Assembly (NCBI GenBank): GCA_003345555.1
Contig: PRDJ01000003.1
Coordinates: forward strand, 1-11,162
Source of the DNA: Candidatus Thorarchaeota archaeon
Lineage (GTDB): Archaea > Asgardarchaeota > Thorarchaeia > Thorarchaeales > Thorarchaeaceae
Direction of reading: 5' to 3'
Length of the DNA stretch: 11,162 nt
Shown here: one piece after another, positions 216 to 11,114 of the stretch
How the letters are laid out: the number at the start of each line of letters is the position of its first letter
Position numbering within the stretch: position 1 is the first letter of the stretch
Translations under genes and position numbers: made by a program
Notes under the pieces: model-generated
The model's database searches: none
Seen by the model: only the letters and a program-made list of their open reading frames with translations
Told to the model about the DNA's origin: nothing

Positions 216-569
216 CTATTGCCCGGTGAGGCCACCGCACTTGCTGTCCTCAAAGATATCGCCAAAGGCCCTGTAGAAGTACTGACAGGCCTCCAATAGA
301 CCTTCTCTACCGGCGGTTGTCAATCTGTAGATGACCTGTCTTCCCTCCGATGTCTTCTCAATCAGATTACGAGAGAATAGGTCCTTGAGCGCGGGATAGA
401 TAGTGCCGGGCGTTGGTTTACTGCCTCTTCTTACAGCGATTCTCTTCGCCAGTTCCTGTCCGTTCATTGGTTTCTTACTCAATTCCCAAAGTATTTGGAA
501 TGAAAGCAGACCACGCATGTCACAGCAGGCTGGCGGACAGCATTCATCGTATACTGGCTTGTGCGTCAC
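216..569 (-). CDS. PadR-family winged-helix transcriptional regulator with Cys-rich N-terminus (CCPPACC)
   Basis: PadR signatures LSFQILWELSKKPMNGQEL, PTPGTIYPALKDL and YRLTTAGR. GTG start at 569 (alternative ATG at 518), TAG stop. Divergent from arsM. Confidence 0.9.
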   Translation of the reverse strand: MTHKPVYDECCPPACCDMRGLLSFQILWELSKKPMNGQELAKRIAVRRGSKPTPGTIYPALKDLFSRNLIEKTSEGRQVIYRLTTAGREGLLEACQYFYRAFGDIFEDSKCGGLTGQ

Positions 570-575
570 GGTCTA

Positions 576-627
576 TATTGGATGACCAATAGGTTTATAT
601 CTGCTTGTATCGGGCGTCCAATAGGAC
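576..627. promoter_or_regulatory. Divergent promoter/operator: TATA box TTTATA at 594-599 flanked by TATTGG-N4-CCAATA (576-591) and a second CCAATAGG copy (618-625)
   Basis: Motifs read directly from the sequence. The TATA lies about 25 bp from the padR GTG and about 25 bp from the second CCAATAGG copy on the arsM side. Confidence 0.55.
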
Positions 628-661
628 CATATTAGATGAGGAATAGAAGGACGAATCTGCA

Positions 662-1420
662 ATGAGAAAGGAGAGCAAGTCCATCAAGAAGCACGTGAAG
701 CAACACTACGCTGAGGTCGCACAAAGAGCCCAGGCACCTGCCTCTTGCTCATGCTCCAGCTCGTGCTGCGGTTCGGTCTCGAAGGCAGAGTATGCAGAAG
801 CAATAGGTTACATCAAGGAGCAAATCGTCACGCTGCCCGACGGGGCCATTGCGGCCAGCGCAGGATGTGGTAATCCCACAGCTCTTGCAGAACTGCAAGA
901 TGGAGAAACAGTCCTCGATCTCGGATCTGGAGGCGGCATTGACGTATTCTTGGCTGCGAAACGGGTCGGACCGCACGGAAGGGTAATCGGTGTGGATATG
1001 ACCCCTGATATGATAGAATTGGCCGAGAAGGGCGCGAAGGAAATGGGCCTTGAGAATGTCGAGTTCAGACTGGGAGACATCGAGGAATTGCCTGTGGAGA
1101 ATCAATCCGTTGATGTCATCATAAGCAACTGTGTCATTAATCTTGCACCTGACAAGGACAAGGTGTTCAGGGAAGCCTACAGAGTACTCAAGCCCGGCGG
1201 GCGGTTGATGGTATCTGACATAGTCACCGATGGTGAGCTGCCCAAAGCAGTAAGGGACAATCCAGATGCATGGGCGGGATGCGTGGCTGGTGCCCTTGAC
1301 GAGCGGGACTATCTGGCCAAGATTCATGATGCGGGATTTCAGGACGTGGAGACTGTCTCTAAGAAGCGATTCGTGGAACAAGTGTACAGTGCAGAGGTAA
1401 AGGCATTCAAACCAATCTAA
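662..1420 (+). CDS. arsM: Arsenite S-adenosylmethionine methyltransferase
   Basis: SAM motif I VLDLGSGGG. ArsM/AS3MT conserved cysteines in GCGNP (C69), ISNCVINL (C157) and WAGCVAGA (C207). Also has LKPGGRL and an N-terminal CSCSSSCC. Confidence 0.92.
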   Translation: MRKESKSIKKHVKQHYAEVAQRAQAPASCSCSSSCCGSVSKAEYAEAIGYIKEQIVTLPDGAIAASAGCGNPTALAELQDGETVLDLGSGGGIDVFLAAKRVGPHGRVIGVDMTPDMIELAEKGAKEMGLENVEFRLGDIEELPVENQSVDVIISNCVINLAPDKDKVFREAYRVLKPGGRLMVSDIVTDGELPKAVRDNPDAWAGCVAGALDERDYLAKIHDAGFQDVETVSKKRFVEQVYSAEVKAFKPI

Positions 1421-1590
1421 GAGGCCGAAAGAGTTCGAGCATACTCTTCACCGCCTAGACGGCTCTTGCCAGCTCACCTCTAGAGTTGGCCTAGAGAATC
1501 GGCACCCGTTACATGATCTTCCGAGCGTATCTGAAAGGTTAAATGGTTCATCAAGCCAGCCGACCAACATCTTTCCGAAGGGTCGATGGA

Positions 1591-2001
1591 ATGCCTCCGA
1601 AGGACATGAACGTCATCGTGTTTGGCTGTACTCAGTGCATGTATAATGCAGCCGATCTTGCAGGCACAATGAAGATACAATATGACGTGAGTGCCCGCAT
1701 CATTCGCATGCCTTGCACGGCAAGGTTAGACATCAACTTCATCCTGAAGGCCCTTCAAGAGGGCGCAGATGGCGTTCTTGTAGTTGGCTGTCACCCCGGC
1801 GACTGCGCTTACAAGACCGGAAACTTGGGTGCGGAAAGAAGGGTCCGCTTCGCGAAGAAGCTCATCGGTCAGCTGGGAATGAATGAGGGCCGCGTGAAGA
1901 TGGTCTTTGTCAGCGCTGCAGAAGGCGACAAGTTCGCGGCTGAGGTCAACAAATTCGCTGACGAAATTCGGAAGATTGGGCCGAATCCGATACGTCTGTA
2001 G
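1591..2001 (+). CDS. mvhD: MvhD/FlpD-family [2Fe-2S] hydrogenase iron-sulfur (delta) subunit
   Basis: Motifs FGCTQCMYNAADLAG, RMPCTARLD, GADGVLVVGCHPGDCAY, GN...RRV, RVKMVFVSAAEG.KF and GPNP. The track starts at 1543, but ATG 1591 (or 1606) fits family length better. Confidence 0.9.
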   Translation: MPPKDMNVIVFGCTQCMYNAADLAGTMKIQYDVSARIIRMPCTARLDINFILKALQEGADGVLVVGCHPGDCAYKTGNLGAERRVRFAKKLIGQLGMNEGRVKMVFVSAAEGDKFAAEVNKFADEIRKIGPNPIRL

Positions 2002-2003
2002 GT

Positions 2004-2189
2004 TTGGGCTCATCTATATCTATTGAAGACTATACAGGGCAAGACGGTTGGCTTCTCAAGAGGGAACCAGCGACTGTTGGATTCTTGGTTGTTATCTTCC
2101 TGTTTGGTTTGCTGATCGGTTTTCTTGGCTTTCGGTTTCTGTTTCGGATGTTGAATCCGGGGGATTTGTTCGTTACGGGGGTGGTATAG
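2004..2189 (+). CDS. Possible small single-pass membrane protein
   Basis: One hydrophobic stretch (VGFLVVIFLFGLLIGFLGF) followed by RFLFR. Only TTG starts are available (2004 or 2085) and there is no clear RBS. It could be a T-rich non-coding tract. Confidence 0.35.
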   Translation: MGSSISIEDYTGQDGWLLKREPATVGFLVVIFLFGLLIGFLGFRFLFRMLNPGDLFVTGVV

Positions 2190-2196
2190 AGAACAG

Positions 2197-2236
2197 GGTT
2201 TATATCCAAAACACTCCATTCCTTAACTATAGTGAA
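2197..2236 (+). promoter_or_regulatory. FTR1 promoter: TATA GGTTTATATC (2197-2206) plus near-perfect palindrome TTAACTATAGTGAA (2223-2236)
   Basis: The 10-mer is identical to the one at 592-601. The palindrome sits at the expected transcription start, 17 bp before the ATG at 2254. Confidence 0.55.
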
Positions 2237-2253
2237 TATGGGGCGGGCAAAGA

Positions 2254-3114
2254 ATGTCGTTAGTAGCACCTCTGGTTGTATCGTTGAGAGAAGGCATTGA
2301 GATAGCTCTGATAATCGCAGTAATGGCATCATACTTGCGTAAGTCGGGTCAAATGCCTCTAGCTCGGTATGTGATGGCCGGCACGCTAATGGCTGTGGTG
2401 GGCAGCATAGGAATAGCCCTCTTAATGGCCGCGATCTGGGGGGAATTTGAGGGGCCCGGCCTTGATGTGTTTGAAGGGGTTGTGGTCATTAGTGCTGCAG
2501 TATTATTGACGACAATGATCCTTTGGATGTGGAAGATGGGGCCCAGCGTCGGGCCGGACATAGAAGCATCAATGAAGCAAAGGGCAAGAGCAGGCAGCAG
2601 CATCGGACTGGTCTTATTGAGCTTCGCGCTCATCCTCAGAGAGGGCGTAGAGCTTGTTCTCTTCTCGATGGCTCTGGCAATAGAGGATGCGACCCAGACA
2701 TATCTAGGGGTCAGTTTGGGGTTGTTACTTGCCTTCGCCGCAGGGGTTGGCATTTACCAAGGATCGCTGAGAATCAGCCTGAGAACTTTCTTCAGGTGGA
2801 CTTCCATATTCCTAGTGCTCTTCGCAGCAGGGATGGTATCCTATGGAATACAGGAGCTACAAGACGGAGGCCTGCTTCTGATCGGGTCACTTCAGGTATG
2901 GGATATCAATCCGCTGTTGGATGAGAACGGGCTAATTGGAGGTCTTGCCAAGGCTTTGTTCGGATATGATGGCAACCCTTCGGCTTTGATGGTCGTGGGA
3001 TATGTGTCGTATCTGTTTATAGTTGCTGTCTACTACGGACTCAACAAGAGACATGTCAACCACGTGGTCCATCCCTCCACGCTCGAAGCCGCAGTAATTG
3101 CCGCCAAGGAGTGA
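2254..3114 (+). CDS. FTR1/EfeU-family high-affinity iron permease
   Basis: Two REGxE iron-binding motifs (LREGIE, LREGVE), about 7 hydrophobic segments, and family C-terminal motifs GIQELQ, WDINPLL and LFGY. Confidence 0.92.
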   Translation: MSLVAPLVVSLREGIEIALIIAVMASYLRKSGQMPLARYVMAGTLMAVVGSIGIALLMAAIWGEFEGPGLDVFEGVVVISAAVLLTTMILWMWKMGPSVGPDIEASMKQRARAGSSIGLVLLSFALILREGVELVLFSMALAIEDATQTYLGVSLGLLLAFAAGVGIYQGSLRISLRTFFRWTSIFLVLFAAGMVSYGIQELQDGGLLLIGSLQVWDINPLLDENGLIGGLAKALFGYDGNPSALMVVGYVSYLFIVAVYYGLNKRHVNHVVHPSTLEAAVIAAKE

Positions 3115-5588: not shown

Positions 5589-6047
5589 TCACCCCTCCGC
5601 AGCTGCTAGACGCTCTTGAATGAATGTTATGGCTTTTTCCTGAATACATCGAGGATACTGACGAATATGCAGTTGAATGCTAATGACATCTGATTCCGTT
5701 GCAAGCTGCAAGCGGCCAAGATATGCAGCCTGCTTATCAAGTCTAATGAAAAGAACACAGCGGTCGTCTAAACGCTGCCTTATCGTGCTGAGAAGGGTCT
5801 CTCTGTCGGTTGATGATAATGTTCTCAGGAGGTAGTCTGCTGTAGTCTCGCTTGAGGGCTTATCTTCTGTTGTCGCAGCGATTACGACGATAGGTATCTG
5901 ATTGTACCCTTCTGTCCTTGTGCTGGTCATCTGCACCTTGCTGCGAAGCTCTTCGGGGAAAACATTCAGGACTGCAGCATTCACCCTTTCGACGATCTCT
6001 GTCGCGCGTGAGTAGGCCCGGGCCTCAACCCTGGCGAAGTACGACAT
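5589..6047 (-). CDS. COG1325/DUF54 RNA-binding protein (predicted exosome-associated)
   Basis: Motifs YSRATE...V..A, EGY.QIPI and RLDD..VLFIRLDKQAAY.G. ATG at 6047 with GGGAGA RBS (the track extends to 6074). Canonical position downstream of rpl15e. Confidence 0.85.
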   Translation of the reverse strand: MSYFARVEARAYSRATEIVERVNAAVLNVFPEELRSKVQMTSTRTEGYNQIPIVVIAATTEDKPSSETTADYLLRTLSSTDRETLLSTIRQRLDDRCVLFIRLDKQAAYLGRLQLATESDVISIQLHIRQYPRCIQEKAITFIQERLAAAEG

Positions 6048-6076
6048 ATTCGTCTCCCTGAGCGGAGCAGTCAAGC

Positions 6077-6658
6077 CTACTTCCCAATATTGCCCTTGGC
6101 CCCAAGAGACGGTCTGATCTTTTCTGCACCAGTACCCTTTCTCCGTAGACCCCTGCTCTTCTTGCCGGCTGAAGTGAGTCCACGGTGCGTTCTTCCTTTC
6201 TGTGTAGGGTCACAAATCCAGTTGATGACCGGGTCATTATAGACTTCTGGGCGACTGGGATCCACCAAGATGCATTCGTACCATATCCACTTGCTATCCT
6301 GCCCTAGCCAGTAGGAGTTCAGCAAGCGAAGATTGGGAAACTTGCGAGCAACTCTCTCTTCAGCAATCCAGCGACGATTCTTCTGGGGCGTGTATCTGGT
6401 GACACCCATGCTTCTTGGCTTCCGTCCAGCTTTGGGTCGAATCTTCTCACGAGGACCACGACCCGTTCTCACTCTTACAACAACGTAGCCTAGCTTGGCT
6501 TTGTAGCCTAGTGACCGTGCTCGTCCGAGTCTTGTTGGGTGCTCTAGCCTTACGATACTATCCTGTCTTCTCCAGACGATATATCTACCCCGGATGGTTT
6601 CAGTACGCTCGTCTTGCTCTTCCATCCATGCTTCATTCATGTGTTTGTAGGCTGACAT
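6077..6658 (-). CDS. rpl15e: 50S ribosomal protein L15e
   Basis: Motifs MSAYKH...W, WRR, PTRLGRARSLGYKAK.GYVVVRVR, EERVARKFPNL.LLNSYW and RGLTSAGKKSRGL. ATG at 6658. Confidence 0.97.
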   Translation of the reverse strand: MSAYKHMNEAWMEEQDERTETIRGRYIVWRRQDSIVRLEHPTRLGRARSLGYKAKLGYVVVRVRTGRGPREKIRPKAGRKPRSMGVTRYTPQKNRRWIAEERVARKFPNLRLLNSYWLGQDSKWIWYECILVDPSRPEVYNDPVINWICDPTQKGRTHRGLTSAGKKSRGLRRKGTGAEKIRPSLGAKGNIGK

Positions 6659-6800
6659 GTTACTACTTCCTTTGCCGTGAATCAAGTCTCTTTGTTTGAG
6701 GTTCAGCCCTCAAAGGGCCACATCCCGCGCGGACGTATCCGCCAACACAAAGGAATGACGTGGTCGAGATTCTTCAGCTGTCCTTCTGACTCGACCACGT
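6659..6800 (-). ncRNA. Candidate structured 5' leader of rpl15e (eL15-type ribosomal leader)
   Basis: TTTAAG TATA at 6823-6818 predicts a start near 6795-6800. Then an 11-bp hairpin (6800-6758), a GCGGA-UACG-UCCGC hairpin (6742-6729), and GGG-AUGU-GGCCCU-UUG-AGGGCU-GAAC-CUC (6726-6698). Confidence 0.55.
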
Positions 6801-6865
6801 TTTTCCGGTAGGCTTGACTTAAAGATGTAACGATTGAACTAGACGGCCGGGTCAGGTGCAGTATC

Positions 6866-10135: not shown

Positions 10136-10576
10136 ATGGAATGGATGGCGTTCCAATCGGGTGCGTCAAAAAGCATGACGGAGCTTGTATGCGACTACAT
10201 TCTTGTAAGGAGACCATCCTTGCCGCGCTGGTGGGATCCTGTCGCAAGACCTCATGTGGCTGTCATAGTCGAAGACGCCATCGATGACTCCGCCGTCCGG
10301 TATTATCTGTCTCGGACTGGTTGTCCTGACCGGAATGGTCGTGTTCCTCTAGAAATCTCCGATATTGAGAGTCTTCCGGAAGGCTCACTTCTTGAGGTCC
10401 GATACAATACCACCAAGGCGAACTTGTATAGACTTGAACTGATAGACAATGTTCCTTGCTGGAGATGGGTAGGCCGTTGCAGGGGGCTATCAAGTTTCGA
10501 GTCTGAGATGGTTGATTGGACTCACCTGCTTGATGATGTGGAGTCCTACCGGATTACGGGATTGGTTCCCAACTAG
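10136..10576 (+). CDS. Hypothetical protein, no family recognised
   Basis: GGAGG at 10123-10127 lies 8 nt before the ATG, with TTATAT about 30 bp upstream. It fills an otherwise empty gap and has a globular-looking composition. Confidence 0.65.
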   Translation: MEWMAFQSGASKSMTELVCDYILVRRPSLPRWWDPVARPHVAVIVEDAIDDSAVRYYLSRTGCPDRNGRVPLEISDIESLPEGSLLEVRYNTTKANLYRLELIDNVPCWRWVGRCRGLSSFESEMVDWTHLLDDVESYRITGLVPN

Positions 10577-10749
10577 CGGATTACCGCTGCGTCACTATCT
10601 GCTGGACAACGGGGCCAGTCATGGCTTCTTGCTTCCTTCTCATTAGTGGTAACAAAGGACCTTTGTTGATGGGATTAAGACTTCGTGTAAAGAAGATGGG
10701 CAATCTCTCGTCAGCTATGTTCAGATGGCAAGCCTTATCAGAGTACATT

Positions 10750-10763
10750 TGAACGTTCTTTCA
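10750..10763. promoter_or_regulatory. ArsR/SmtB-type operator core TGAA-N6-TTCA
   Basis: TGAACGTTCTTTCA matches the CzrA/SmtB operator core, 9 bp upstream of ATG 10773. Confidence 0.55.
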
Positions 10764-10772
10764 ACTGTTCGA

Positions 10773-11114
10773 ATGAAGGTGACCTTGCTGCCAACCAAAC
10801 TCAATCAAGACCACCGCCCGATCCTGTTCGACGATACGGAAGCAGAGGCGGCCGTCAGAATCTTCAAGGCTCTGTCTGACGAAACGAGGGTAAGGACGTT
10901 GTCGATACTTACGATGAACAAGGATTACTGTGTTTCAGACATCGCATCAATGCTGAAGATGGACATTAGCAGGATAAGTCACCAACTTACGAAGCTTGAG
11001 GACTTGGGTTTCATCAGGCGACGTAAGTCTGGCAAGAATGCGTACTATCGAATCAGCGACGATTGCATCCGAAGTATACTTGGGAGGGCGAAGGAGCATG
11101 TCGCAGGAATCTAG
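10773..11114 (+). CDS. ArsR/SmtB-family metalloregulatory repressor
   Basis: Motifs FKALSDETR..IL, CVSDIA..L, ISHQL.KL...G.I...K.GK..YY.I, and an alpha5 helix ending EH. The track starts at 10725, but ATG 10773 is preferred because of the operator position. Confidence 0.9.
   Translation: MKVTLLPTKLNQDHRPILFDDTEAEAAVRIFKALSDETRVRTLSILTMNKDYCVSDIASMLKMDISRISHQLTKLEDLGFIRRRKSGKNAYYRISDDCIRSILGRAKEHVAGI

Follow-up and report, generated by a model that had tools for sequence, protein, structure and literature searches.

An eL15 ribosomal leader in Thorarchaeota with a candidate two-state expression platform over the Shine-Dalgarno sequence of rpl15e

Some translational riboswitches and bacterial ribosomal leaders (r-leaders) occlude the Shine-Dalgarno (SD) sequence. 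To our knowledge, archaea have very few described regulators that act at the RNA level, and the validated r-leaders known to us show repression, whereas positive autoregulation is not among their behaviours. The closest described archaeal element is the eL15-Euryarchaeota leader (Rfam RF03144), a motif that was assigned to Euryarchaeota only, with rpl15e as the sole gene given as regulated (Eckert and Weinberg, 2020; PMC7247131). Its published consensus consists of P1, P2 and a 5-nt tail, and no expression platform was proposed; the bulged-G (sarcin-ricin/loop E) module of 23S rRNA was named as the eL15 site, and imitation of rRNA by the motif was called unclear (PMC7247131). In the first rows of Additional file 3 of the same paper, several euryarchaeal 5' flanks appear by eye to be complementary to an SD-adjacent stretch, a feature that is absent from the drawn consensus. 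Rfam 15 added three covarying pairs to RF03144 (PMC11701678). Our literature search returned no experimental binding, feedback or reporter study for any eL15 leader, no published mechanism for it, and no paper on an eL15 leader in Asgard archaea.

We analysed a window of 11,162 nt, the whole of the stretch under study (contig PRDJ01000003.1 of assembly GCA_003345555.1, Candidatus Thorarchaeota archaeon), in which the leader and the genes that follow it lie on the minus strand (-). The rpl15e gene [6077..6658 (-); 193 aa; PF00827, E 2e-71] encodes a protein whose closest relatives are Ca. Thorarchaeota eL15 proteins (73-84% identity). Upstream of it, positions 6742-6695 (-) match the full length of the RF03144 model (positions 1-48) with 41.4 bits (E 3.8e-5, Infernal) against a gathering score of 33.7 bits, and the end of the model lies 36 nt before the ATG on the strand of rpl15e. 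A preliminary description, made from the letters alone, had proposed an eL15 leader here. This assignment is borne out by the full-length match above the cut-off, by conservation in relatives and by the core pairs, and the letters, the strand and the distance of 39 nt from 6698 to the ATG at 6658 are as that description gave them. The match is a single copy in the 2.28 Mb genome, in which no second copies before other genes were found. In its score, its position upstream of rpl15e, and its possession of P1 and of P2 with an NRUGU/GAA loop, the element agrees with RF03144, and we conclude that it is a real member of a catalogued family whose core was already known.

The proposed extension of the family to a new archaeal lineage survives in name only, since Thorarchaeota-type rows were already present, as unnamed metagenome sequences, in the defining alignment of 2020. 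In a by-eye comparison, the cores of loci L007/L009/L012 and L025 are identical to rows of that alignment, including a row from sample SMTZ1 (PMC7247131); the names Thorarchaeota and Asgard were not found in the searched parts of the supplements of that paper. The Thorarchaeota leader shares with the eL15-Euryarchaeota leader P1, P2 with the NRUGU/GAA internal loop, an A-rich tail, and a place just 5' of rpl15e. It differs by an additional 5' hairpin (P0), a switch strand, a further hairpin (P3) and two alternative helices (A and B), all described below. As far as we have searched, neither this additional platform nor the breadth of the element's occurrence among Asgard archaea has been published.

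Among 45 Thorarchaeota loci that were fetched, we distinguished 43 leaders, in all of which every core pair is formed. P1 (6729..6742) is observed as in the Rfam alignment at 6742-6729, with 5/5 pairs in 43/43 leaders and a variable loop. P2, observed at 6726-6700 (6700..6726), comprises a GG/CC lower stem, a GAUGU/GAA internal loop that is the putative eL15 site, and an upper stem. The loop had been drawn differently, as a 4x4 loop closed by GGG/CUC; this register failed, as its middle pair requires a U that is present in 2/43 distinct leaders and is replaced by a G.A mismatch in the other 41. An alignment of rpl15e upstream regions showed that P2 covaries and corrected the register to GG/CC around a 5x3 loop, GAUGU/GAA, which is paired in 43/43 leaders and covaries across lineages. 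In 25 cores from Asgard archaea and Woesearchaeota, a set chosen partly for pairing and therefore biased in favour of the test, double changes occur at all six P2 pairs, and no shuffle reaches the score. This register was further supported, later and independently, by Heimdallarchaeia copies that have a GA/UC lower stem of 5-7 pairs.

The description as an rRNA mimic holds for one of the two loop strands. Helix 11 of 23S rRNA, which we take to be an eL15 contact, shows covariation in Thorarchaeota, lies near position 180-205 and contains the canonical bulged-G strand pair GAA/AGUA; this loop was found in four Thorarchaeota 23S genes, including that of the host genome. The leader likewise has a GAA strand within an asymmetric internal loop, but the opposite strand is (G)AUGU instead of AGUA, so that the bulged-G arrangement of AGUA opposite GAA is absent. 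GAUG and CUGA, present on the two strands of the Thorarchaeota loop, could instead mark a K-turn or a box C/D-like binding site of L7Ae, which is also an RNase P subunit, in place of an eL15 site. We regard this assignment as very improbable. The register it requires would destroy the covarying upper stem of P2, CUGA is not conserved beyond Thorarchaeota and is replaced in the Odin-, Freya- and Heimdallarchaeia copies, and a 3-nt bulge with a canonical stem 5' of the G.A pairs is missing.

The element reaches beyond the segment first described (6698-6742), by approximately 60 nt on the 5' side and 30 nt on the 3' side. A BRE/TATA-like promoter box [6818..6834 (-)], with a TATA-like hexamer at 6823-6818, is conserved approximately 75 nt upstream of the motif, most of its positions being 93-100% conserved in the 43 leaders, and the exact full pattern, which includes a TTTAAG box, occurs once in the host genome. 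From the conserved box at 6834-6818 we infer a transcription start near 6797-6800 and a 5' UTR of approximately 140 nt; the box is possibly a useful example of an Asgard promoter. A bacterial-type promoter scan of the leader was uninformative. Two wetland metatranscriptomes, possibly from one campaign, contained six short contigs, mostly of rpl15e and the leader, that are strandless and uninformative for the parts they do not cover. One metatranscriptome contig covers 6632-6782, although contigs of this kind neither reveal where transcripts begin nor rule out a DNA origin. P0 (6758..6800), located at the predicted beginning of the transcript, is a hairpin of variable sequence with a perfect basal stem of 10-11 bp; a hairpin of 5-16 predicted pairs occupies this position in 43/43 leaders, where its sequence is unalignable. 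The entire leader (6800-6656) folds at z = -3.3.

Between P0 and P1, and outside the Rfam model, lies an anti-SD-like switch strand (6743..6757) with two alternative partners. Its core, CCUUUGU, is present in 43/43 leaders and belonged to the extraction pattern, which 45/45 Thorarchaeota loci matched. Partner B (6666..6675) overlaps the SD-like purine tract 8-17 nt before the ATG, and its pairing with the switch strand (helix B; 99.3% of cells paired, mean duplex of -14 kcal/mol) would cover the SD. SD signals are used in the host, where GGAGG occurs at -16..-8 in 74 ORFs compared to 10 in a control window, and the 16S rRNAs of two relatives end in a canonical anti-SD (this assembly contains no 16S gene); the rpl15e SD is weak in the host (-4.8 kcal/mol; mean, -6.8). 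Substitutions in the core of helix B are of one type, 19/20 being A-to-G opposite U, which gives a wobble. Native strand pairs are stabler than cross-species pairs (171/20000 permutations over 38 haplotypes, with kinship left in), and SD pairing is 0.93 compared to 0.63 with shuffled flanks, and higher in 43/43 leaders. Column covariation in helix B did not exceed column shuffles, in related sequences whose columns barely vary. At equilibrium helix B dominates in 36/43 leaders, and ViennaRNA favours it in the full-length RNA by approximately 4 kcal/mol, irrespective of core folding. By these comparisons of sequences, helix B appears better supported than helix A, with modest covariation.

The other partner of the switch strand is the A-rich 3' tail of the family (6686..6699), extended in Thorarchaeota into partner A (6698-6686). 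The resulting helix A (91.7% of cells paired) would close a three-way junction and leave the SD free. Its mean duplex is -8.7 kcal/mol compared to -4.8 kcal/mol for shuffled sequences, it is dominant (p>0.5) in 36/43 transcripts truncated ahead of partner B, and folding of the core raises it in the prefix transcript from 0.79 to 0.95. The 3-nt linker contains two U in 41/43 leaders, as needed for helix A, the first position of partner A shows wobble-only changes, AAAG is conserved after the family tail, and three divergent leaders (L010, L017, L068) rebuild helix A with altered letters. Helix A is broken in L023 and absent in L018. No covariation was found for it: native pairing equals cross-species pairing, and column shuffles are not exceeded in columns that barely vary. 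Its conservation is partly accounted for by the family tail and by P3 (6677..6690), a weak hairpin that is possible only with helix A open and whose pairs are formed in 41/41, 12/41, 35/41 and 39/41 leaders. The tail is also kept in Thermococcales-type leaders, which are short and have neither a switch strand nor a 5' partner for it; the search pattern for these leaders, whose lineage label is inferred, fixed five of the six letters of the tail, a constraint that did not apply to the rows in the paper. Because the tail is kept where no 5' partner exists, it probably belongs to the binding module and would be hidden by helix A. Thus, a single strand has two conserved, mutually exclusive partners, one of which lies over the SD, as in a two-state expression platform. 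An "anti-aptamer" helix between the switch strand plus linker and the 3' strand of P2 was also considered and was rejected on account of a variable 3-nt linker, which breaks the pairing in several lineages.

We propose, at roughly even confidence, that this Thorarchaeota form of the eL15 leader acts on translation through a two-state expression platform, in which free eL15 would promote helix B and so block its own translation. During transcription the switch strand would pair first with partner A, forming a tight three-way junction with an open SD onto which coupled ribosomes could load (ON state). When eL15 exceeds free 23S rRNA, it would bind the P2 internal loop and the A-rich tail, which would be unpaired only with helix A open. 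Binding would speed or lock the shift to helix B and P3, such that the SD would be buried and rpl15e initiation would stop (OFF state; negative feedback). An opening route is needed because a permanently closed SD is unlikely on an essential gene, and the predicted preference for helix B means that the two-state model can hold only if the switch is kinetically controlled or the multiloop energies are in error. As in translational riboswitches and bacterial r-leaders, an anti-SD strand has two mutually exclusive partners, but the presumed ligand is a protein and the host is an archaeon. The direction of switching is argued from the tail: repression is favoured because validated r-leaders repress and because the tail is conserved as a single strand in Thermococcales-type leaders. 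The opposite logic, by which eL15 or another factor would stabilise the compact helix-A junction and activate translation, would agree with helix B as the predicted default and with the stimulation of helix A by core folding. It is nevertheless quite improbable, since positive autoregulation would be unlike the validated r-leaders known to us and since helix A engages a tail that other members of the family keep single-stranded.

The same negative feedback could arise without a dedicated ON fold. In such a leader, helix B, P1, P2 and P3 would form a four-way junction whose closing helix B breathes, eL15 would stabilise helix B over the SD, and helix A would be a by-product of the A-rich tail. 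The dominance of helix B at equilibrium, the lack of covariation in helix A, and the ability of P3 to account for conserved G, GA and C positions are all consistent with this simpler arrangement, as is the lower stem in Heimdall-, Odin- and Freyarchaeia, which continues into the SD region with no competitor. However, it leaves unexplained the conserved AAAG, the two-U linker, the wobble-only start of partner A and the rebuilt helix A of the three divergent leaders, and a duplex as stable as helix B would seldom open unaided. We consider it unlikely, though still an alternative to be reckoned with, and prefer the two-state platform.

Among the lineages compared, only Thorarchaeota showed a switch strand with two partners. 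The core is widespread. The motif precedes rpl15e in 35/36 and 26/26 same-family genomes and in 45/45 of the Thorarchaeota loci fetched. A P2-only model placed it immediately 5' of rpl15e in Thorarchaeota (17/17), Odinarchaeia (4/4), Baldrarchaeia (4/4), Freyarchaeum relatives (6/6) and Borrarchaeum relatives (3/5), counts that are partly circular, as the model was built from the same lineages; the two Borrarchaeum misses lack rpl15e in the assembly. The core lies upstream of rpl15e in the Baldr-, Odin-, Borr- and Freyarchaeia loci L086-L109, and a pyrimidine strand with complementarity to the SD is conserved within the Freyarchaeum group. Woesearchaeota/Nanoarchaeota and one further archaeon (L044-L048) have the P2 core without P1 upstream of rpl15e and gave no Rfam match. 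Copies that did not contribute to this model stand before rpl15e in the genomes of Heimdallarchaeum aukensis and a second Heimdallarchaeota member, and in a Kariarchaeaceae-related and a Hodarchaeales-related genome, with low scores and with position as the main evidence. Heimdallarchaeia cores below the Rfam cut-off [L150:196-245, L163:198-242, L158:190-242 and L154:655-722 (-)] were also noted, and three of these four have a GA/UC lower stem that reaches or enters the SD-like tract. Occlusion of the SD in non-Thorarchaeota copies is visible in some folds and is overall no better than with shuffled flanks (0.72 compared to 0.66; 17/24). No core was found in four AT-rich Loki-like upstream regions, one of which was assigned by way of its cluster members. 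Four weaker model matches in other Asgard genomes were discarded as chance, three because they fall within long open reading frames and the last because it does not precede rpl15e.

Taken as one claim, to which we give slightly less than even confidence, the Thorarchaeota leader would carry a complete, riboswitch-like two-state platform (helix A, ON; helix B and P3, OFF) that is missing from the family model, and the eL15 core would be no euryarchaeal speciality but common to many Asgard classes (including Heimdallarchaeum, Kariarchaeaceae and Hodarchaeales-related genomes) and Woesearchaeota, as an ancient feedback element of archaea that the nearest kin of eukaryotes have retained. This broader range qualifies the view of the 2020 paper that r-leaders seldom span phyla (PMC7247131), and it places the element among those Asgard lineages that are most closely related to eukaryotes. 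The Thorarchaeota copies offer a concrete, mutable expression platform, which makes self-repression by eL15 and its route testable.

Downstream of rpl15e, the gene for a PF01877 RNA-binding protein [DUF54; 5589..6074 (-)] starts 2 nt past the rpl15e stop and is followed, after a 3-nt gap, by the gene for RNase P subunit Rpp30 [PF01876; 4899..5585 (-)], whose stop overlaps by 4 nt the start of the gene for RNase P subunit Pop5/Rpp14 [PF01900; 4588..4902 (-)]. DUF54 is immediately 3' of rpl15e in 43/45 Thorarchaeota loci. Since the operon is tight, indirect control of the RNase P genes by the leader is plausible, and in the two-state model translational coupling would be the only route by which it reaches DUF54, Rpp30 and Pop5. 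This tight four-gene arrangement with two RNase P subunits, and the 5' hairpin in every leader, would also suit a leader that controls the stability, processing or transcriptional elongation of the operon mRNA instead of translation initiation, including recognition of a cloverleaf-like fold as an RNase P substrate. We judge this improbable: a bacterial-type scan of the leader found nothing resembling a terminator, the P3 loop varies and does not look like a T-loop, the best-supported helix lies exactly over the SD, and at some loci the core stands before rpl15e where no adjacent RNase P protein gene was detected.

Several minor observations were made at this and related loci. In a same-genus genome, DUF54 lies approximately 1.3 kb away from rpl15e (L032, and also L027), which points to an insertion within the operon. 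Another Asgard genome has an RNase P RNA gene (L038:545-886) approximately 600 nt 5' of rpl15e and RNase P protein genes. Elsewhere in the window, a Pfam search with the 146-aa ORF at 10136-10576 gave no match; judged from ORF translations alone, the regions 216-3114 and 10136-11114 encode a PadR-like regulator, an ArsM-like methyltransferase, an MvhD-like protein, an FTR1-like iron permease and an ArsR-like regulator. In several Thorarchaeota (L002-L006, L010, L017, L023), the start codon of rpl15e is apparently TTG.
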